A DNA stretch of 64,000 nucleotides from Escherichia phage vB_EcoS_HdH2: the sequence record NC_048748.1; one strand, written 5' to 3'. Shown one piece after another: positions 2,741 through 52,600 of this stretch. The notes beneath the pieces were generated by a model that ran no database searches, was not told where the DNA came from, and saw only the letters and a program-made list of their open reading frames with translations. The position numbers and the translations under genes are program-made. How positions within the stretch are numbered: the stretch's first letter is position 1; each line of letters begins with the position of its first letter.

Positions 2741-5530
2741 GTGTTTTCTATCCTCCAAGGTCACGCTGGGTTTTCTCGTGATTTAGCAACAGGTATTTGG
2801 CGAGAAATCAAAGCGGAAGATTATACCTTTGCCAAGCGATTCTCGAAAGAGCATCCAGAAGGTAAACCAGCTTCTATGCCCTTCAAATTTGATGTAATAG
2901 AAGAGCACGACCCTCAAAGCCTTGCCGAAATGTTACCACTTATGAGACGTTTAACGTCTGACCCTCATATCGTTGCGGTACGAGGTCGGTGTCTTGCACC
3001 TAAAAATAACGTGCGACGTAAGAAAGGTAACTTTAATGTATCTAATCCTAGTAATATTATTGCTATGGACGTGGATGGTATCCTAGATACCGGTGGGTAT
3101 GACAAGTTTAACCTTGTTGGTATGGCCCGCCACATTATTAAGATGTTGAATAGTATTAGTGAGGACATGTTCCCTCTTGATGCAGGCTTTATAGCTCATG
3201 CATCGTCTTCGGCTGGGCTAAAACCAGGTATCCGAATGCACTTAATGCTAGAATCTAACGTCAAGGTAACTCAGGGTCAGTTAAAGTTCTTATTTACATC
3301 TATCAACGATAGTAGTAAGCAAAAATTTGGTTTTGATATTGCCGACTTAGCTTATTATTCATCTGTCCAGCTCCACTATTTTGCCGACCCCTTATTTAGT
3401 GATGGTATTGTTGATCCGTTTAAAGCGGAGAGTAAGCCACGTCTGGTGTATGTTAAAGGTTCGAAAGTAAATTTGCCCAATAATCTGGTTGACTATGAAA
3501 CAACTAGAGGGGAGTTTAAGGAAGAGTTTTATTCTTTACTTGATCAAATTAAAGGCAAAAAGATCGCGTCTGATAAAGTAGAAGAAACCATCAGCGAATT
3601 GGAAGAAGCTGAGGATGGGGTGTACCTGCGTATTATCCCCAAACTCTACCATAGAGCATTAGAGGATGGTGTTGATTTTGCATGGCTAGAACGTGAGATT
3701 AAACCCGCTTTATCTGAATATATTGCAACTAAAGATAACAGTCGTAATATTCAAGATTACTTTAATAACGGTCGTAAGCAGGCTCTCAAAGCGTTTGTTA
3801 ATAATTCTAAACGTGAGATTCCATTAAATCTGAAAGGTGTTCCGCTCAAGAAATTAGAAGTGGATTCTCCACCAGAAGTTCCGTACCTGAAGATTAACAT
3901 TGTGCCTCCAAAAGGCCATATAACATTTGTTAAAGCAAGTCTTGGTACTGGTAAGACTACGGCAGTAACTAAATGGCTGGACGCAGGTGTTCTTCCTGGC
4001 AACTTTTTAGCAGTTACAAATACTAGAGCACTGGTATCTTCAAACGCTAAGAAATTTAGCGCAGGACAATATGATAAGTCTGTAGATATGCTCAACTTTA
4101 AACGTGGAGCTATTGATCGTATGTCCACGACTATTCACTCTTTGCATAAGTTCAAAAGTTTTATTGGTCAAATAGATACCATTTTTATTGATGAATGTGA
4201 TGCTGTAATGAATGATCTATTATTCGCACCTGTTGTTAAGCAACGTCGCGAATGTATTCAAGTTCTACGTGACATCCTCATGACAGCTAAAACTGTAATT
4301 CTATCAGATGGTGATATTAGTGCCGAAACTATTGAAGCATATGGTTCTCTAATTGATTTTGATAAACCAGTAGCATTTTATAATCATCACCGTAAGATGC
4401 TGTCAAAAGCTCATGCTTATGAGTTCCCTGATGAATCCAGTATTTGGGTTGCACTTCAGACTTCCCTGGAGATGGGTGAGAAATCTATCCTAGTATCTGA
4501 CTGTGGGCCAGATGAACTGAATGAGAAGGGCATGGCGTTGCGTCGTAATACGGGTGCGTTAGTTAAGGAAATCCACTCAAACTCTACGTCTGATGTAGAT
4601 ATTAGACGTATTCTGGATTACACAACTAATGAACTAATTGATCAACAAATTGATTGCTTATTATGTAGTCCATCCGTAACGAGTGGTGTTGACTTTAACT
4701 ATTTTGATAACGTATTTGTTATTACTAGAACTAGTAATCAAGCGCCAAACATGCGCTTTCAAGCAATCAGGCGCGACCGTGGTGCTCAGAATATCTATTA
4801 TTTTATTGATAAATCCACTAGTGGATTCTCCGCAGGTTCTGAACAGTATAATATTGATGAAGGTTGGCTGGAGTTAGCACAGCAATTATACGCACGTCGC
4901 AGGGAGCTGGAATCTAGGAACTATACTAGTACTTTACGTTATTACTTGCTTGATCAAGGTGCAACTATTGATATTTTCAGCGAAAGCTGGGGAACTATTG
5001 AAGGTGCTGGTAAAGAATATACAGAAGAGCGAATCAAAGCCATTCTGCATTCAACTCCGGATTATTGTGCTCCACGTCATGCGGATGCGTATGAAGCTAA
5101 ACTACTTCTTGTTCGCTATTATCATCTTGAGTCTATTAAAGATGTAACAGTTGAGCATGTTGAACAATATATCAAAGATAAACCGAATGATCGAGCCGCC
5201 TTCTTCCATAAGATGCACGAGATGTTTTGGGAAGATATTAAGAAGTGTTCAAATGTAACCATTAAACCATTCATAGAAGCTCTGAAAGGTAAGAAAAAGG
5301 ACTTCTTCCTTAAAACAGGTCAAAGTGCTAACCCAAAATATGCTAGAATGTATCTTGGTATGATGGGTATTGGTAAGGATATGAACACTGAAAATATCGT
5401 AGACTGGTATAGAACCTATTGTAAAATCGAGTGTATGCCAATCCCTTATAAGTTCATGACTGACGAGGAAAGACATATGCACGATGAAGCAATGGCAGAG
5501 CTAGGTGCTAGAAATGACAGTGAAGAATAA
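2741..5530 (+). CDS. SF2 helicase-like ATPase, replication-origin-binding-protein type
   Basis: 929 aa; Walker A KASLGTGKTTAV and Walker B IFIDECD; GTG start 6 nt after AGGAG. Confidence 0.6.
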   Translation: MFSILQGHAGFSRDLATGIWREIKAEDYTFAKRFSKEHPEGKPASMPFKFDVIEEHDPQSLAEMLPLMRRLTSDPHIVAVRGRCLAPKNNVRRKKGNFNVSNPSNIIAMDVDGILDTGGYDKFNLVGMARHIIKMLNSISEDMFPLDAGFIAHASSSAGLKPGIRMHLMLESNVKVTQGQLKFLFTSINDSSKQKFGFDIADLAYYSSVQLHYFADPLFSDGIVDPFKAESKPRLVYVKGSKVNLPNNLVDYETTRGEFKEEFYSLLDQIKGKKIASDKVEETISELEEAEDGVYLRIIPKLYHRALEDGVDFAWLEREIKPALSEYIATKDNSRNIQDYFNNGRKQALKAFVNNSKREIPLNLKGVPLKKLEVDSPPEVPYLKINIVPPKGHITFVKASLGTGKTTAVTKWLDAGVLPGNFLAVTNTRALVSSNAKKFSAGQYDKSVDMLNFKRGAIDRMSTTIHSLHKFKSFIGQIDTIFIDECDAVMNDLLFAPVVKQRRECIQVLRDILMTAKTVILSDGDISAETIEAYGSLIDFDKPVAFYNHHRKMLSKAHAYEFPDESSIWVALQTSLEMGEKSILVSDCGPDELNEKGMALRRNTGALVKEIHSNSTSDVDIRRILDYTTNELIDQQIDCLLCSPSVTSGVDFNYFDNVFVITRTSNQAPNMRFQAIRRDRGAQNIYYFIDKSTSGFSAGSEQYNIDEGWLELAQQLYARRRELESRNYTSTLRYYLLDQGATIDIFSESWGTIEGAGKEYTEERIKAILHSTPDYCAPRHADAYEAKLLLVRYYHLESIKDVTVEHVEQYIKDKPNDRAAFFHKMHEMFWEDIKKCSNVTIKPFIEALKGKKKDFFLKTGQSANPKYARMYLGMMGIGKDMNTENIVDWYRTYCKIECMPIPYKFMTDEERHMHDEAMAELGARNDSEE

Positions 5531-23860: not shown

Positions 23861-24303
23861 TTAAAATTAAATTAACTCATCCAGATTGTATGCCTAAGAT
23901 TGGTTCCGAGGATGCCGCAGGTATGGATCTGCGAGCATTCTTTGGTACTAACCCTGCTGCAGATTTACGAGCTATTGCACCAGGTAAATCTCTAATGATT
24001 GACACCGGTGTCGCGGTGGAAATTCCGCGAGGTTGGTTCGGTTTGGTAGTTCCACGTAGTTCTTTAGGTAAACGCCATCTGATAATTGCAAATACCGCAG
24101 GGGTGATCGACTCAGATTATCGTGGAACTATTAAGATGAACCTGTTTAACTACGGTTCTGAAATTCAAACATTAGAAAATTTCGAGAGACTTTGTCAACT
24201 AGTAGTAGTACCACACTACTCAACTCATAATTTTGAAATCGTTGATAAACTAGAGGAGACTGATCGTGGAGAAGGTGGATTTGGAAGCTCAGGAAGTAAG
24301 TAA
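23857..24303 (+). CDS. dut: dUTP pyrophosphatase
   Basis: AGMDLRA, VIDSDYRGTI, C-terminal RGEGGFGSSG; 148 aa. Confidence 0.9.
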   Translation: MIKIKLTHPDCMPKIGSEDAAGMDLRAFFGTNPAADLRAIAPGKSLMIDTGVAVEIPRGWFGLVVPRSSLGKRHLIIANTAGVIDSDYRGTIKMNLFNYGSEIQTLENFERLCQLVVVPHYSTHNFEIVDKLEETDRGEGGFGSSGSK

Positions 24304-24538
24304 TTTTACTGATCCTAATGGAGTAGGCCTAGACTTAGCTGAACCTACTAATTTCTATCATGTGGCTGTTGCTCAGCCTGATCTTAACAAAATTGTACTT
24401 AAAGTCGATATGTTTGGTAATGTGGAACAGTGGGATGAGGAAGGATTCTTGAACCTATGTAATGAGTCTCAAGATCCAACTCTCAAAGCCATGTTAGCCG
24501 TGTATAACTTAGGTATTATCAAAGGAAGTAAAGATTAA
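24266..24538 (+). CDS. hypothetical protein
   Basis: 90-aa ORF ending just before the convergent terminator. Confidence 0.4.
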   Translation: MEKVDLEAQEVSNFTDPNGVGLDLAEPTNFYHVAVAQPDLNKIVLKVDMFGNVEQWDEEGFLNLCNESQDPTLKAMLAVYNLGIIKGSKD

Positions 24539-24544
24539 TAAAAA

Positions 24545-24574
24545 CCCCAGTGGATTGTCCACTGGGGTTTTCTT
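24545..24574. terminator. bidirectional intrinsic terminator between convergent early and late modules
   Basis: ccccagtgga-ttgt-ccactgggg flanked by A-run upstream and T-run downstream. Confidence 0.75.
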
Positions 24575-26818
24575 TTACTTAGCCTTTAACTCAGCTATCT
24601 GAAGTTTTAGCTCCTCTATCTGATTGCTTAGATTTTGAATTGCCGCTAGAGCATCTAATAGAAGCACATTCTCATCTAGGGCCAGAGAAGTAGAACCGTC
24701 GGAAGATTCGTATTTTCTTACATATTGACTATCAATCTCCTCTAGTTGTTGCGCGATAAAACCTCTACGTACCTGATTCCCTTTATCATATATGTACTTA
24801 AATGAGGTATACTCCATCTGCTTAATATTCTCCAGAGCAATGGAAGTACTTAAGGATTCAATATCCTTTTTCTTATTACGATCTGAAACTGGGGACTTAC
24901 TAAATATATAGTTAACAGTACCTGCATTATCACCAAAAGTAATATCATAACTAGTACCATTAAAGATAGTATTTCTAACAGCGTTACCACTAGGGGATTC
25001 CCCCGTACTAAGATCGTAATCCCAGCATTGCGTAAGCATTGCATTTGGGTGGGCGTTAATATCACTCCCCATAGTAAGTGTACCTAGAGCCGTATAGCTT
25101 CTCCAAGCGCCTCCAGGCCCTCCTGTACCTCCACCAACAATAGGGACAAAAGCTCCATAGAGGGAAGTATTCCACCAATCTTGTGCTCTAAAAGGAGTGT
25201 ACCCATAAGCTAAAGGAGTTGCAGAACCCCCTGTAGCTCTTCCCAGTCTAATTGCACCGTCTAACCCGAAATTAAAGTGGGCCACATCTATCTCACTTAC
25301 TAATTGGTTTTCTACAGCTATAACACCCACTAAGTTTCGTGCATAGGCACCTTGAGCATACATACGCATCCTATAGGCATCTGTTGTACCCACTCTGTAT
25401 TGAGAGGTTAGTTTACCACCTAATACAGTTGTACTAACTGCAGGAGCCGAGGCATCAGCATTAATAGAAGAAAAGTCTGTATTAGCAGCATTAAAAGAAC
25501 CATTAGCACGGATAATCCAAATACCTGTTGCATGGTTAGGGTATAGGTCACCAATAGGGCCAGTACCGCCGGGGTCTGATTGGTAAGCAGGACCACGTCC
25601 ATATGTCTTGTTACTTCTAGAGGCCGAAAATCCTAAGTGGTCTCCCTTATCTGAACCTCCTACAGTAAAGGAACTACCTGTATCTTGAGCATTTAAATAA
25701 AAAGCCCCCATGGCATCTGCAGCATCAGCGTTACTACCATGAGTATAGAAAGTACCAGTAATATTGGGGGCAGTCTGATTCCACACCTGATTAGCAGACG
25801 GTTCATTAGTGGCTCCAGAACTACCAGATAAGAATAGATGCTTAATACTATTTAACTGTGTACCATTAAGATCAGGAACTCGGAAAGTAGTAGAACCATC
25901 ACCAGTAGAGTAGGAAGCTCTCCAAGCGCTAGGTCTATTAGGATCCCCACTATTAATCCATAAAGCGTCGGAAACAGCGTAAAATAGACCACTAGATACC
26001 GCAGACCATAGATCTGCTGTTTTAGCATCAGTACGGCTAACTAACTGACCATCTGCTGGTATATAGCCGGCTGGCAGGTTAGTACGGTTACCATTGAACC
26101 ATTCAACAGCACCAATACGGTTATTCATAACTCCACTCATGCTAGCACCACCTCCTCCTGAGATATTAGCTAGCTGACGAACAGTAACAGCATCATAAGG
26201 TGCTTGACCATCGGCGGCTAATGCTAGAGGTTTACCATCTAGCAGCTTAGTTAAGGCCTCCGCAGGAGTACTAGCACCGGTACCACCAGATTGAATAGGT
26301 AAAGGTATAAATGTACCAGAAGCTGTGCTATAAACTCCCCATGTAGTACCTTCACCAACAGTAAGATAGTTTGTCGCATAAGGACTATATACTAGAGTTT
26401 CACCGGGGAACTGCTTAAACCTATTAAGCTCTAAGTTAGCTCTAGCATTTTCCGCAGTGCTAGCCCCTGTACCACCCTGAGCAACCGTAATAGCCTTAGT
26501 AAGTGCGTTTAGTTCAGTAATATCGTTATTAGCACCTTTAGCAGCTTTAGTGTTAAGAGTACTATTAATACTACCAATTGCAGTATTAATATTCCCAATA
26601 GCATCAGTGTTACTTTTGATAGAGCTATCAATACCAGTTAAACGCGTATTAAGTTCTTGCTGATCTAAGTTATATTTAGAAATTTGTAGATATTTGGATG
26701 TTAGTACGACAGCACCAGCTTCTCCATCAACAGAGAAAACGCCGGCAACTGCGGCGTCTCTATTAACTACAACATAGGGGGCCATAGCCCCACTTTTTGG
26801 CATTAAATTACGTGACAT
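24575..26818 (-). CDS. ltfB: L-shaped tail fibre protein B-like (LtfB-like), with C-terminal intramolecular chaperone domain
   Basis: 747 aa; GGTGAST...AR.NL repeats (x2); C-terminal block NKKKDIESLS...RRGFIAQQLEEID...LLLDALAAIQNL typical of self-cleaving S74-type chaperone. Confidence 0.75.
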   Translation of the reverse strand: MSRNLMPKSGAMAPYVVVNRDAAVAGVFSVDGEAGAVVLTSKYLQISKYNLDQQELNTRLTGIDSSIKSNTDAIGNINTAIGSINSTLNTKAAKGANNDITELNALTKAITVAQGGTGASTAENARANLELNRFKQFPGETLVYSPYATNYLTVGEGTTWGVYSTASGTFIPLPIQSGGTGASTPAEALTKLLDGKPLALAADGQAPYDAVTVRQLANISGGGGASMSGVMNNRIGAVEWFNGNRTNLPAGYIPADGQLVSRTDAKTADLWSAVSSGLFYAVSDALWINSGDPNRPSAWRASYSTGDGSTTFRVPDLNGTQLNSIKHLFLSGSSGATNEPSANQVWNQTAPNITGTFYTHGSNADAADAMGAFYLNAQDTGSSFTVGGSDKGDHLGFSASRSNKTYGRGPAYQSDPGGTGPIGDLYPNHATGIWIIRANGSFNAANTDFSSINADASAPAVSTTVLGGKLTSQYRVGTTDAYRMRMYAQGAYARNLVGVIAVENQLVSEIDVAHFNFGLDGAIRLGRATGGSATPLAYGYTPFRAQDWWNTSLYGAFVPIVGGGTGGPGGAWRSYTALGTLTMGSDINAHPNAMLTQCWDYDLSTGESPSGNAVRNTIFNGTSYDITFGDNAGTVNYIFSKSPVSDRNKKKDIESLSTSIALENIKQMEYTSFKYIYDKGNQVRRGFIAQQLEEIDSQYVRKYESSDGSTSLALDENVLLLDALAAIQNLSNQIEELKLQIAELKAK

Positions 26819-29800
26819 TAACTAGTACCTTTCATTTTGTCTAACTCTGCTTCTATATTTGATAATCTAGTCATCAAATCAAGCTTTTCGTTAATGTTGT
26901 CAATAACAGTGGACATCTCCTGTAATTTAGTCTCAAGAGACTTATTTCTTTCAGATAATACTTTAATAGCAGCTAAAGCATCCATTAATAATGGGTTGGT
27001 ATCTAGAGTTAAAGTAATATCGTCAGTTTCAGGGTTGCCAACAGATTTAACATATTGAGGATCAATCAACTCTAATTGTTGTGCAATAACACCACGTCTA
27101 ATATTCTTTTTCTTATCAAACTTATATGTGAATTTCTTGAACTCCATTTTTTCAATATTTTCAAGAGATTCTTCACCCGATACGTCCTGAATATTATCTT
27201 TTAAATTGATATCAGATACCGCATTTTTAGTATAAGTAAAGTTAAAGACAACGTTATCATAGTCTGATCCCCATCCGTTAATATCCCCTGACATGTGGAA
27301 CTGGTAGGTGCATGCCCAATTAGAGTCCCCGCGCAGTCTAAATACATAGGCAGGCCAAGCAGTAGGGCCACTGGCTATTAATCCAGTAGTAGCCCTCATC
27401 GGGTAACCACCTGTAGATTGAGTTCTGGCACTAATAATAGGCACAAACCCGTGATCATTATCTACTACATCAGAAGCTTGAAAAGGAGCGAAGAAACCAA
27501 ATGAATCCCCATCCCAGGGTTTCTGGTATCCTTGAGTATGCATGCGCTCTGCATTCCAAGCCCCGGAATCCATATACAGATTAGCATATTTAGTAGCAGT
27601 AAAGGAACCGTCTGCAGTACGTCTATAGGCAGCTATCGTAGCTCTTTCAGTAAGAGATTGGCCATAATTACCTTCTGAGTAAAATAGCGCTTCTAAACGA
27701 GGTGTGTCTGGATCCACCGAGTTATCCAACTGGACTTGTGCAGAAAAAACCTCCGATCCTATGTAAGATCCCGCCGAAGGAACCGCGTGGTATTTACGGG
27801 AAATAACACCACCATTCTTAATATTAATAGGCCAACCTTCCAGATTACGTAGCTGAGTAATATCGAAGTTAATACCAGCACTTGCAGCCTCTAGGTTTTT
27901 TCTAGCTTGAGCTGGCTCAGTAGCTCCAGTACCCCCATGCTCAACAGGTAAAGATACCCACTTGTTCTCAGAATGGTCGTATACTCCCCAGTTTTTAGTG
28001 TCTTGGACCATAAACACTATATTTTGATCCTGAGAGGTTATATGTGTTCCTCCTTCTAGCTGCTTTACTCTATCCACTTCTAGGTTAGTTTTGGCGGAAC
28101 TAACTGTAGAAGCTCCTGTCCCTCCTTTAGCTAGACTTAAGACACCTTGAGTATCACCATTTAGATCTGGCTTGTTAACAGTACCATAAAGAATATTAGT
28201 ATGAACAATAGGGTTTTCACTATCTAAACCAGCATCATTGATTGCAGCTACAAATACTGCGGCACTACCATACCCAGCACAGATAAATGAATTAGTATCT
28301 GCTACCCTAGAGTAGAAACCTGCAGAATACGAGGGCAAGCCCTCAACTCCAGTATCATTGCGATAATATCCAGAACCAAAAGCTCTCATAGCTTTAAAGA
28401 AGGATACTAGATCTGGCTCATTTAACGTAATACCAGCACCACCTAAGCCAAAAGCACCGCGAAGTAGAACTTCCCCATCAGTACCATTCCAAGCATTCTT
28501 AGTAACAACGTTACCTAGTGCTAGGTTACCATTCTCGTCTGGTATAATAGTTCCATTAACCATAGCCACGTAAGGGAGCTTAATAGCTCCAGTATCGTCA
28601 GCAGGACTAATCCCATTCACAGTGGTAATATAAGGAATTTGTTCTTTGATAGCACCAGCATCTTCTTCACCCTTAGTTGGTGCACGGAATGCCTGTCCCT
28701 GCATCATATCTGGTAGACGGAAAGTAGTAGTACCATTACCAGTGGAGAAATAGAGAGTTGCACCTGCTTGCCATTGTTCTTCGGTAACAGAAGGGATTAA
28801 GCCAGCCTCAATAGCTTCCCAAGTATCTGGGTAGTCTACACGAAGAACTTCACGACCATCAGCAGGAAGAACACCAGGGTAGCCAACACCTGAATCTTTA
28901 TCATAAGGGAACCAAGTAACTTCACCCAGCCATAAAGAGGGGTTACCACCAGGAAGAGTAATCTGTACGTTACCTGCGTCATCTGCACGAACGTTGTTAA
29001 TAGAAACTAGCTTTTGCTCTGTCTCTACTAACTCTAATACTGGAGTCTCAGCAGTTCCAGCTACTTTGTACCAACCGTACTTTGAATCAGTTTGATTCCA
29101 TACTAAAATCTTTTCACCTAATACACGACTAGATACATCTGCATCAGCTTCAGCTTTAGTTTTATATACTTTGATAAATCCAGAAATATCTTCTTTATCA
29201 AGTTTAGTGTCTACTATTTGAGCAGCACGATCAGCTTCTGCTTTAGCGCGATTAGCCTCAGTAGTTGCATTTCCTGCCTGATTAGTGGCTTCACCCTCAG
29301 ATGCAGCAGCATTAATCTCAGACGTTTTAGCATTTAATTCCGATTGCTTAGCAGCAGCAGCATGTTCTCCAGCAGTTGTAGCAGAATTAGCAGCTTTTAT
29401 TTCGGAAGAGGCGGTTCTTTTCTCAGCAGCTTCTGCACCAGTTTGGGCTGTCTGTGCAGCTATTTTAGCCTGTTCAGCTAATAAACGACTTTGTTCAGCA
29501 TTCTGCGCTGCCAATTCGGCAGAGTCTCTAAATCCCTTTGATTCTTGCGCAGAAGCTGCAGAATTATCTGCACTGCTTTGGGCTAATCCCGCCTGTTTTT
29601 CTGACTCAGTAGCAGAGGCAGCAGATTGAGTTGCTGAAGCTTCGGAAGCACCAGCATGAATACCTGCCTGAATCTCTGAATCTTTAGCTTTATTTTCAGA
29701 GTCTTTAGCTGCTATTTCAGAACCTTTAGCAGCAGCAGCGGATCCTGCAGCGGCCTCTACAGCAGCAGTTAATTCACCAGCAGTAATAGAACTAATAGAA

Positions 29801-29901
29801 TTACCTAAAACTACTGTATATTTAGGATACTTACTAGCAGTAGTTGTAGTATCATCTATGTTCAGAATCTGCTGTACAATAATTTTAGTTTTAAGTGCCA
29901 T
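26818..29901 (-). CDS. ltfA: L-shaped tail fibre protein A-like (LtfA-like), with C-terminal intramolecular chaperone domain
   Basis: 1027 aa; Ala/Ser/Glu-rich repetitive N-terminus; GGTGAST repeats; C-terminal block NLKDNIQDVS...RRGVIAQQLELID...LLMDALAAIKVL. Confidence 0.75.
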   Translation of the reverse strand: MALKTKIIVQQILNIDDTTTTASKYPKYTVVLGNSISSITAGELTAAVEAAAGSAAAAKGSEIAAKDSENKAKDSEIQAGIHAGASEASATQSAASATESEKQAGLAQSSADNSAASAQESKGFRDSAELAAQNAEQSRLLAEQAKIAAQTAQTGAEAAEKRTASSEIKAANSATTAGEHAAAAKQSELNAKTSEINAAASEGEATNQAGNATTEANRAKAEADRAAQIVDTKLDKEDISGFIKVYKTKAEADADVSSRVLGEKILVWNQTDSKYGWYKVAGTAETPVLELVETEQKLVSINNVRADDAGNVQITLPGGNPSLWLGEVTWFPYDKDSGVGYPGVLPADGREVLRVDYPDTWEAIEAGLIPSVTEEQWQAGATLYFSTGNGTTTFRLPDMMQGQAFRAPTKGEEDAGAIKEQIPYITTVNGISPADDTGAIKLPYVAMVNGTIIPDENGNLALGNVVTKNAWNGTDGEVLLRGAFGLGGAGITLNEPDLVSFFKAMRAFGSGYYRNDTGVEGLPSYSAGFYSRVADTNSFICAGYGSAAVFVAAINDAGLDSENPIVHTNILYGTVNKPDLNGDTQGVLSLAKGGTGASTVSSAKTNLEVDRVKQLEGGTHITSQDQNIVFMVQDTKNWGVYDHSENKWVSLPVEHGGTGATEPAQARKNLEAASAGINFDITQLRNLEGWPINIKNGGVISRKYHAVPSAGSYIGSEVFSAQVQLDNSVDPDTPRLEALFYSEGNYGQSLTERATIAAYRRTADGSFTATKYANLYMDSGAWNAERMHTQGYQKPWDGDSFGFFAPFQASDVVDNDHGFVPIISARTQSTGGYPMRATTGLIASGPTAWPAYVFRLRGDSNWACTYQFHMSGDINGWGSDYDNVVFNFTYTKNAVSDINLKDNIQDVSGEESLENIEKMEFKKFTYKFDKKKNIRRGVIAQQLELIDPQYVKSVGNPETDDITLTLDTNPLLMDALAAIKVLSERNKSLETKLQEMSTVIDNINEKLDLMTRLSNIEAELDKMKGTS

Positions 29902-30323
29902 TATTGAGTTACTCCATCGCTGATGTATACTTTACCTTCCATAATACGGAAAGAACTGACTTCAGAGCCAATTACATCACGAGTCATTAGGATATCATAA
30001 TAACCAGCAAAGCGTTGTCTTGGGTTATACTTATCACGTTCTTTAGATGCTTTTTCACCAATATTAGTAACGTCTGCAACGGAAAGACTAATTGCAGCAG
30101 CACCTTGAGCAGCATCAATAACGCGAGTTTTAAAGTTAGCTAGAACTTCGGCGTTCTCGTCTAAGCTAGACTTAATAGTTCCTCGGAGTGAATATCCGGT
30201 TAAGTTAACAGGAACTTCTGTTGGTGGATACACACTATCATCAACATCCATAAATTGCATGATAAGACCATAAGGTACTTTTTCATCAATAACAATATCA
30301 ATAACTCTATTTTCAGTACTCAT
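29901..30323 (-). CDS. tail collar protein (T5 p132 position)
   Basis: 140 aa, between straight-fibre gene and ltf genes; call by size and synteny. Confidence 0.45.
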
Positions 30324-50812: not shown

Positions 50813-52600
50813 TTAGGTAAGGCGTTGAACTGTTACTCTTAATCTCGGTAGGAAAATAGCTGCAGCCTCATCAGCGTGAATAATTACGCCCAATTCAGCA
50901 TTACCATTTCCTAGATTTTTAATAGTATAAATATATCCGTTTCTTCTAAATGTTAACTCATCAGGTCTACTTGCCCAAGTTTGAGTATAACTGTATGCAG
51001 TAGTGGAGTGATAAGGGACTAAGTATCCAGGAGGTAAGGTTAATATTTGATGGAATATTCCATCACCTTCCGTGTAACTATGCTGTCTTCTTCCTTGTAC
51101 TTGCCAAGCAACACCACCATATGTGCGTATAGCTCCTCCTGCGGTATTAATATTCCCCATGATAACTTCAGTAGTTAATATTACTGTTGCGTTAGCATTA
51201 GGCAATCCTAATCCTATGGTGGCCAAAGCTCTATAGTAGTTACCTGCTCCAGGATATGTTGGAGTTATATCATCGCCAACGTAAGTGCTAGCAACATTAT
51301 TAGGAAATAGTCTTAAGGGTACAGTACTAGGACTCCACACAGCTCCATGCTCATTACCTATAGTGTTATTACTTGAGTTTACGTACCATTGTTTACCCGC
51401 TCCGAATTTGTAAATACTAATTTGAGACTTAGCCCCTCCATAATCTACGGGAGACCATAAAGATCCATTACTAGATCCTACAATTTCACAGCGCGCAGTA
51501 GTATCCCCGAAGGCTCCAGTGTACGCTGCGTTATTTCCAATGTACTCCATATCTGGCCTATAGCCTAAGTTACCAAAAGCATTTTGGTTGATAAACTTAT
51601 ATCCAGTATTTGGTAAACTAACCCCTTTTATAGTAAAATTAGATGGAGTTATAAGTATATCTGACCCAGTAAATGGATTACCGGATACGCCCATATTACC
51701 ATTAGAGTACCTTAGATTAAGTACATACCAAATAACTTTGGTAGGTGTAATATTATAACCATCCTGCACATATACTTTCTTAGCGGCCTGTGCCGCTAAA
51801 TTAGATGTTGAACCTTTGCATATGTAAACCTTATCAGGGTAAGTAGGAGATTGATACAATAAGTTAACATTAGCCGGTACTGTGCCCTTTTTACCTACAT
51901 AACCTCGTATATTAGAGTTACAAACGTAAAACCAATTATGCCCTCTATGGGCGGCCCCTATAGGAGCTTGCCAATTAGGGTGCCAGTAGTCAGCATTACC
52001 ACCATCTATAGGTACTGTAGACGCTCCTGCTGGAAATCCTGCTAAAGTCCATGCCCTACCTATAGCCTCACCAGCATATGCTCCTCCCGGTCTATATAAA
52101 TTAAACCCAGAGGCTTGAGATATGGTACCACCTGTACCCTGCCTAGCAATTGATTCTTCATGCCCTAAACCAGAGTTATAAATATAGGTGCCATGTGCTA
52201 AACTATTACCGGATGCAAAAGCTGACGTAAGACCTACTTCTGCACCTGCCCTACCAATAGGCGGATCTTCAAAAAATGCAGTAAATTGACCAACTTGAGA
52301 TTGAGTACCATTAAGAAAAGCTCTGTGAGTACCATTTATCTCAATAGCAGTTAGTATAACTCTACCTGGGTCGTTGGATTTAATATTTATTATGTCAGAG
52401 GGCATTTGACATACAAAAAACCCATTCCCGGCATTACCTAATGCAGCCTCATAAGTACCATCAACTAGGACAAATGGCATATCACTATGAAAAATACTAT
52501 TGGCATTTGGACTATAGTGACGATTAATGTCACCACCAGATTCAGTATTTAAAGATAGTACGGTCTTACCATCGCTATATTTTCCAGCGAAAAAACCCAT
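50813..52600 (-). CDS. receptor-binding tail protein (T5 pb5/oad-type)
   Basis: 595 aa; divergently adjacent to a lipoprotein gene as in T5 oad-llp; Gly/Asn/Tyr-rich. Confidence 0.6.

Follow-up and report, generated by a model that had tools for sequence, protein, structure and literature searches.

In phage T5, the L-shaped lateral tail fibre is encoded by a single ltf gene, whose product pb1 has 1396 amino acids (aa) (PDB 4UW7/4UW8). A stretch of 64,000 nucleotides (nt) from Escherichia phage vB_EcoS_HdH2 (NC_048748.1), hereafter the window, has two large consecutive fibre genes instead, which raises the question of whether their products form one fibre or two, and what each of them contributes to host recognition. 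An earlier note, drawn from the sequence alone, had described the two genes as an overlapping pair of the LtfA/LtfB type, the products of which both carry GGTGAST-type repeats, differ in their receptor-binding regions and end in a chaperone block. In our analysis, the region very probably encodes the lateral (L-shaped) tail fibre of a T5-like phage in its two-protein LtfA/LtfB form, branched and bearing two tips.

The two fibre genes were confirmed in the list of open reading frames (ORFs) to the exact coordinate, both on the minus strand. The first, ltfA (26818..29901, 1027 aa), encodes the proximal or main lateral tail fibre protein, as judged from homology to LtfA of Escherichia phage DT57C and to PDB chain 8hqz_d, and the second, ltfB (24575..26818, 747 aa), encodes the second lateral tail fibre protein, which matches phrog_6921 over its full length (E 3e-152). 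Both start with ATG and contain no internal stops, and ORFs so long with hundreds of homologues are far beyond chance. The overlap is read directly at the ltfA/ltfB junction, ACTAGTTAATGTCA, where one base is common to the stop and the start codon (as TAATG). Upstream lies ltfC (29901..30323, minus strand), which encodes the 140-aa collar protein anchoring the lateral fibres (Pfam PF23926 LtfC, 57.8 bits). Its stop overlaps the ltfA start likewise as TAATG (window 29899-29903), so that the three genes form a coupled chain. The earlier note had named the ltfA/ltfB overlap alone; the ltfC/ltfA overlap is an addition.

Fibres made of LtfA, LtfB and LtfC are known from Escherichia phages DT57C and DT571/2 (Golomidova et al. 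2016, PMC4728585; Ayala et al. 2023, PMC10713586; PDB 8hqz). Alignment to T5 pb1 and to DT57C LtfA and LtfB, a check that the earlier note had proposed, upheld the assignment to this type. As in DT57C, the genes follow the order ltfC-ltfA-ltfB between pb4 and the dut/D15 block, with LtfC being 94% identical; LtfA contains a phiEco32 gp14-like module (aa 223-471 in DT57C), LtfB opens with a conserved element of about 45 aa resembling phiEco32 gp15, and both fibres close with a Peptidase_S74 chaperone and its Ser/Lys dyad. In contrast to DT57C, where ltfA and ltfB are 38 nt apart, the genes overlap in the window, LtfA has two GGTGA motifs in place of the 19-aa tandem repeats of DT57C, and LtfA past aa 442 as well as most of LtfB is just about 20-40% identical, so that the tip alleles differ. 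Comparison of the two genes also found no long direct ltfA/ltfB repeats of the kind that cause deletion-fusion in DT57C, the longest nucleotide repeat between them, located around the collar motif, spanning 40 nt with 83% identity. Thus, instability of the DT57C type is less likely here, and the locus should be genetically more stable. A two-gene layout with similar lengths is annotated in phages Sw2, HMD-P5, ECOP18 and HZ_ZJUN2 besides DT57C; the LtfA/LtfB arrangement, described in 2016 and widespread, is therefore real but ordinary in this phage.

The likeness to the T5 fibre is confined to certain parts. T5 pb1 shares with LtfA an N-terminal attachment and coiled-coil part (about 220 aa), a short stretch corresponding to LtfA 522-578 and a C-terminal chaperone of the self-cleaving type, and no alignment of pb1 with LtfA was possible beyond the N-terminal ~220 residues and 522-578. 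It has neither the gp14-like module nor GGTGA motifs, and its polymannose-binding tip is unrelated in sequence to the tips in the window; a single gene of about 1400 aa with a polymannose-binding C-terminal domain, characteristic of the pb1 type, was not found there. The kuraviruses provide the other comparison, with the pairs phiEco32 gp14/gp15, SU10 gp12/gp13 and EP335 gp12/gp13. The middle module of gp14/gp12 is about 42% identical to LtfA 223-442, gp15/gp13 are 71-75% identical to the N-terminal 45 aa of LtfB, and for the rest of LtfB, chaperone included, identity to the distal fibre of kuraviruses is about 38-43%. Their proximal protein uses its N-terminus to bind a podovirus adaptor, whereas LtfA has a T5-type, LtfC-binding end instead, and the SU10 gp12 chain 7z47_D matches LtfA from residue 223 onward only. 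Unlike its kuravirus partner, LtfA also has its own tip and chaperone downstream of the common module.

The domain layout of LtfA (all fibre segments described here being on the minus strand) starts with aa 1-222 (29236..29901), in which T5-type N-terminal attachment strands (about aa 1-40) are followed by an Ala-rich trimeric coiled coil. The first 50 residues are 100% identical to those of DT57C LtfA, and the N-terminus is homologous to T5 pb1, with the first 100 residues aligning and phrog_24369 matching residues 3-213. The attachment role of these strands is known from the cryo-electron microscopy (cryo-EM) study of DT57C (PMC10713586). Over aa 1-442, which span the tail-attachment end and the phiEco32 gp14-like module, identity to DT57C LtfA amounts to 84%, and the match to the DT57C cryo-EM chain 8hqz_d reaches E 3e-237. 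The module itself (aa 223-442; 28576..29235), of the phiEco32 gp14/SU10 gp12 kind and with a collar-like TTFRLPD motif, matches residues 239-461 of 7z47_D with E 1e-41; this phiEco32 gp14-like region was proposed as the LtfB docking site by Golomidova et al. (PMC4728585). Further along, a double GGTGA(S/T)...NLE module (aa 579-672; 27886..28167; motifs at 593 and 656) forms the boundary of the exchangeable tip. It is followed by a beta-rich distal region of the HMD-P5/STP-SP2 type, presumed to bind the receptor (aa 673-895; 27217..27885), with an identity of about 96% to Salmonella phage HMD-P5 and of 18-50% to ECOP18. The last segment (aa 896-1027; 26821..27216) is an intramolecular chaperone (Peptidase_S74) with S896 and K901 and a predicted cleavage before S896.

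LtfB opens with a conserved element like phiEco32 gp15 (aa 1-62; 26633..26818), which is presumed to dock onto LtfA and is about 89% identical to DT57C LtfB, as compared with 37% for the two proteins end to end. A double GGTGAST module (aa 101-195; 26234..26518; motifs at 115 and 178) constitutes a module boundary for many Salmonella phages. The conserved middle domain (aa 205-447; 25478..26206) carries the Pfam Collar motif (TTFRVPD at 310; 24.9 bits), ends with RANGSFNAANT and holds most of the invariant columns in an alignment of 64 LtfB family sequences; the equivalent segment of EP335 gp13 has been likened to the T4 gp12 tip (PMC8217332). In the following hypervariable distal region of the HZ_ZJUN2/Sw2 type (aa 448-644; 24887..25477), again presumed to bind the receptor, just two columns of the same alignment are invariant (P459 and G468), both at the start of the segment. 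The protein ends with its own Peptidase_S74 intramolecular chaperone (aa 645-747; 24578..24886) with S645 and K650.

The chaperone block claimed for both proteins was found well above the Pfam gathering cut-off of 22 bits, with PF13884 (Peptidase_S74) scoring 48.2 bits at LtfA 896-951 and 50.0 bits at LtfB 645-700. When five sequences were aligned, the only Ser and Lys columns to be invariant near the beginning of the domain (S-x4-K) were those holding S896/K901 (LtfA) and S645/K650 (LtfB), together with SDARLK of T5 pb1 and SGIEYK and SGRDFK of DT57C; the T5 pb1 dyad in these columns we take to be S1264/K1269. K650 is invariant and S645 nearly so in the 64-sequence alignment. By analogy, we infer autoproteolysis in both proteins, which would leave mature LtfA 1-895 and LtfB 1-644. 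In AlphaFold2 (AF2) models, the chaperone segments have a predicted local distance difference test (pLDDT) score of 80-96 overall and 80-90 for LtfB, and the predicted folds match the MyRF ICA domain, the endoNF chaperone and the GA-1 chaperone; for LtfB, Foldseek gave 7dc3 at E 3.5e-6 and the endosialidase chaperone 3gw6 at E 6e-4. A phmmer search of the PDB at E < 0.01 matched DT57C LtfA, SU10 gp12, a coiled-coil protein and MyRF and no others; T5 pb1 (4UW7/4UW8) was not found in it.

How alike are the two fibres to each other? The GGTG[AS] motif occurs four times in the six frames of the window, and all four occurrences lie in ltfA and ltfB, two per protein, with the same spacing of 63 aa in both; the repeats ascribed to both genes are thus indeed there. 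LtfA and LtfB could be aligned in three stretches only: at 40% identity in the double-GGTGA module, at 35% in a stretch resembling the collar, and at 34% across the final ~100 residues of the tip and the chaperone that follows. No alignment was possible for the remaining distal regions, which bears out the statement that the receptor-binding regions differ.

The origin of the locus was resolved with an identity profile over 50-residue segments of the proteins combined with blastn breakpoints, and it is a mosaic. LtfA aa 1-600 are closest to the E. coli O157 phage ECOP18 (about 100% at the protein level; 97.1% nt identity over window 30482-28067), whereas aa 601-1027 are closest to Salmonella phage HMD-P5 (about 96%) and only 14-50% identical to ECOP18. 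LtfB aa 1-450 are again closest to ECOP18 (about 95%), and aa 451-747 to E. coli phage HZ_ZJUN2 (90-100%, about 96% for the tip; about 90% to Sw2 and 14-32% to ECOP18), to which LtfB is 94% identical overall. Identity to ECOP18 drops from about 100% to about 25% at aa 600 of LtfA and from about 90% to about 20% at aa 450 of LtfB, where the ECOP18 similarity stops at window 25484 and identity to HZ_ZJUN2 remains at 90-98%; similarity to HMD-P5 stops at window 26461, in the double GGTGAST module of LtfB. The best full-length match to the locus is Sw2 (84% nt identity over 95% of the locus). The whole combination of tips and proximal parts was present in no single record of the phage collection, and this particular allele combination is new to it.

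The same joints recur in other phages. With LtfA aa 451-750 as a query, similarity was lost in 40 of the 60 sampled records, in every case at query nt 407-461, which correspond to aa 586-604, the span containing GGTGAST. Many Salmonella-phage megablast matches end at query nt 3441-3466 (LtfB aa 119-127, GGTGAST...AR), and others at query nt 4418 (LtfB aa 445, inside RANGSFNAANT). Relative to ECOP18, both tips have been replaced, with the junctions exactly at GGTGAST...NLE in LtfA and RANGSFNAANT in LtfB; the LtfA and LtfB tips are exchangeable cassettes, swapped independently. Exchange is also seen at the scale of the locus. The tail backbone (pb4 to pb2) has 94.5% nt identity to Escherichia phages JLBYU40, SP15, phiAPCEc03 and FFH1, and JLBYU40, the closest of them, has an unrelated fibre cassette of 790 + 92 + 589 aa (L007 3146-7572) with no GGTGA motifs and a chaperone in the last protein only. 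An unrelated cassette on a near-identical backbone indicates that the whole ltf locus is replaced between backbones, and that it acts as a group of cassettes which can be exchanged at fixed joints.

The LtfA tip has relatives beyond the T5-like phages. The best distant homologues of LtfA 570-1027 (26821-28194) are fibres of the ~39-kb T7-like Shigella phages CT02 and ESh3 and their metagenomic relatives, which have a Phage_T7_tail N-terminus and show 38-40% identity across two thirds of the query, so the tip cassette crosses phage families. The homologue search with this segment missed its close relatives, and the alignment behind the LtfA model was accordingly built with no near homologues; the candidate list, compiled by word sharing, was probably saturated by chaperone domains.

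The two elements by which LtfB would be held on LtfA are widespread. The N-terminal 62 aa of LtfB were found in 234 phage records, 142 of them at 80% identity or more and 92 at 60-80%; among the matches listed, the former group is T5-like and the latter kuravirus. For the LtfA 223-442 module, coverage reached at least 80% in 240 records, of which about 149 are T5-like and about 91 belong to kuraviruses. As a query, the T5-like tail backbone matched about 465 records; with roughly 150 LtfA/LtfB-type records in the phage collection, this gives approximately one such record per three backbone matches. Near-equal counts of the two elements in two phage groups with otherwise unrelated tails lend indirect support to a working pair, the comparison being one of record counts and not a record-by-record intersection. 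Some of the records have unexpected labels: PQ773600.1, a 41-kb entry named 'Corynebacterium phage CPphiVTCCBPA_418', matches the first 53 residues of LtfB with 94% identity, and MG065642.1 ('Campylobacter phage A148', 113 kb) has an 86% identical LtfA. Carrying T5-like ltf sequences, both are probably mislabelled or contaminated entries. Many LtfB homologues (P0009, P0021, P0040, P0045 and others) come from contigs about 100-113 kb in length that are assigned to Salmonella enterica or E. coli and are probably whole T5-like phage genomes in bacterial assemblies, present as a carrier state or as contamination.

Taken together with the DT57C work, these data are consistent with the following model. 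As suggested by the cryo-EM and genetics of DT57C, LtfA trimers would insert their N-terminal strands into the LtfC collar, with the coiled coil projecting outward; in DT57C, LtfC forms a dodecameric collar into which LtfA threads its N-termini, the two proteins making up a lasso structure (PMC10713586). The gp14-like module of LtfA (aa 223-442) would then hold the conserved N-terminus of LtfB (aa 1-62), so that a single fibre branches and bears two different distal tips. Each tip, to judge from the domain family, would fold with the aid of its own C-terminal intramolecular chaperone, which would then cut itself off at S896 in LtfA and S645 in LtfB using the Ser/Lys dyad. The two unrelated tips may bind different surface polysaccharides, most likely O-antigens, and the O-antigen layer would in this manner be passed before the pb5-type protein binds its outer-membrane receptor. 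The C-terminal segment of LtfA sets the O-antigen specificity in DT57C and DT571/2, and its swap switches the host range; loss of LtfB abolishes growth on an LtfB-dependent host, and the same study reports an ltfB opal phenotype and puts forward the branched model (PMC4728585). From these genetics, dual polysaccharide specificity of the LtfA and LtfB tips can reasonably be inferred by analogy. No depolymerase or esterase domain was detected in the tips by Pfam, and they appear more likely to be binders than depolymerases.

Several observations count against a branched fibre with two receptor-binding tips. LtfA beyond aa 442 is only about 22% identical to DT57C LtfA, so that the receptor-binding role of its tip rests on position, the chaperone domain and the cassette-like exchange. 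The monomer AF2 models are mediocre (mean pLDDT 61.8 for LtfB and 71.2 for LtfA 570-1027), their confident parts being the beta-rich tip strands of LtfA (about 75-87) and, in LtfB, a collar-type domain at aa 231-330 (77-92), a beta-sandwich at aa ~430-520 and the chaperone. Structure prediction of the distal domains, which the earlier note had recommended, therefore gave a divided answer: the chaperone folds were confirmed, and the tips had no significant structural match in the fold search of the models, so no sugar-binding site can be located in them. The co-occurrence of the two docking elements carries the limit already given for it. In the cryo-EM study, DT57C LtfB was seen as weak density only (PMC10713586). 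Finally, in the SU10 paper the homologous pair of kuraviruses is taken to form the proximal and the distal segment of one elbowed, unbranched fibre. By this precedent, LtfA would make up only the proximal shaft and meet LtfB, the distal half, at an elbow (as in SU10 gp12/gp13), the LtfB tip being the sole receptor binder and the distal part of LtfA structural. The SU10 homologues are named proximal and distal long-tail-fibre proteins, with one elbow reported, and a tagged EP335 gp12 (the LtfA-like partner, fused to green fluorescent protein) bound none of the strains tested (PMC8217332). We nevertheless consider such a serial arrangement unlikely in this phage: the gp14/gp12-type module is central in LtfA and about 450 residues of the mature protein still follow it, these residues include a tip that phages exchange at one fixed joint and that precedes a complete chaperone domain, and the corresponding LtfA segment is the one that switches host range in DT57C and DT571/2 (PMC4728585).

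A different attachment of LtfB has to be weighed as well, in which it would be an independent fibre bound elsewhere on the tail tip (e.g. to pb3, pb4 or the collar) and not via LtfA. The LtfA-LtfB joint has no known structure, and weak densities near the DT57C tail tip were read as LtfB ends touching the tip (PMC10713586). The DT571/2 ltfA amber mutant, however, fails to grow on the LtfB-dependent host HS3-104, and a mutant with fused LtfA-B grows on this host again (PMC4728585). Moreover, the LtfB N-terminus and the LtfA module are present in nearly equal numbers of records, and the pair travels across siphovirus T5-likes and podovirus kuraviruses, architectures with no other tail proteins in common; an independent LtfB is therefore very improbable. 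Least probable of all, with hardly any chance of being correct, is that the pair is a single ltf broken by a frameshift or an assembly error, or a decaying duplicate. The three short homologous stretches common to LtfA and LtfB are the sole hint of it. Against it, both genes are intact and ATG-started, T5 pb1 homology to LtfA is confined to the N-terminal ~220 residues, at least five phage isolates are annotated with this layout of two genes, and an identical 747-aa LtfB has been called on a public ENA metagenome contig of 110,302 bp (ERZ23880358 NODE_17). The narrower case that the earlier note had named as fatal to its claim, one gene being a frameshifted fragment of a single ltf, is ruled out, since neither gene lacks a conserved N-terminus or a chaperone domain of its own.

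With the branched LtfA/LtfB fibre as the preferred explanation, the locus has little weight for basic biology, the two-protein T5-like fibre having already been described both genetically and structurally, and the finding that the cassette junctions are set by motifs is useful but a small advance. In practical terms the locus has modest value, as a clean case from nature in which the two tips have both been exchanged at fixed, motif-defined positions (LtfA aa ~600, LtfB aa ~447), and these are the sites of choice for re-targeting T5-like phages via cassette exchange. Such a case also suggests that host range should be predicted for such phages per cassette and not per gene. A more far-reaching proposal, which we regard as possible but rather doubtful, is that GGTGAST...NLE and RANGSFNAANT serve as recombination linkers through which T5-like siphoviruses, kuravirus podoviruses and T7-like phages trade tips, and that this phage is a fresh recombinant of a Salmonella-type LtfA tip and an E. 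coli-type LtfB tip with a host range over two genera. If true, a two-genus host range would be predictable from the identities of the cassettes.

The surroundings of the fibre genes fit the assignment of the window to a T5-like phage, which its gene order, in agreement with DT57C and T5, indicates. The ltf genes are flanked by pb4, pb3, pb9 and pb2 upstream and by dut, D15 and D14 downstream, as in DT57C, and ARAGORN detected no tRNA genes across the 64-kb window. A pb5-type receptor-binding protein (50813-52600, minus strand, 595 aa) is 66% identical to DT57C Hrs, which is of the BtuB-binding type, and BtuB or a related transporter may serve as the terminal receptor. The protein is shorter than T5 pb5, which has about 640 aa. 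Within the Ala-rich coiled-coil coding part of ltfA, a 114-aa GTG-initiated ORF runs antisense (29285-29629, plus strand); it was rejected as a gene and is most likely a by-product of codon composition. Downstream of ltfB, a strong bidirectional intrinsic terminator with a 15-bp stem and T-runs on both strands (24540..24572) closes the ltf operon against the convergent early-gene block, lying between ltfB and a convergent 90-aa ORF (24266-24538; PHROG 5592, DUF7369), and in T5, too, a bidirectional terminator is annotated at the corresponding place.

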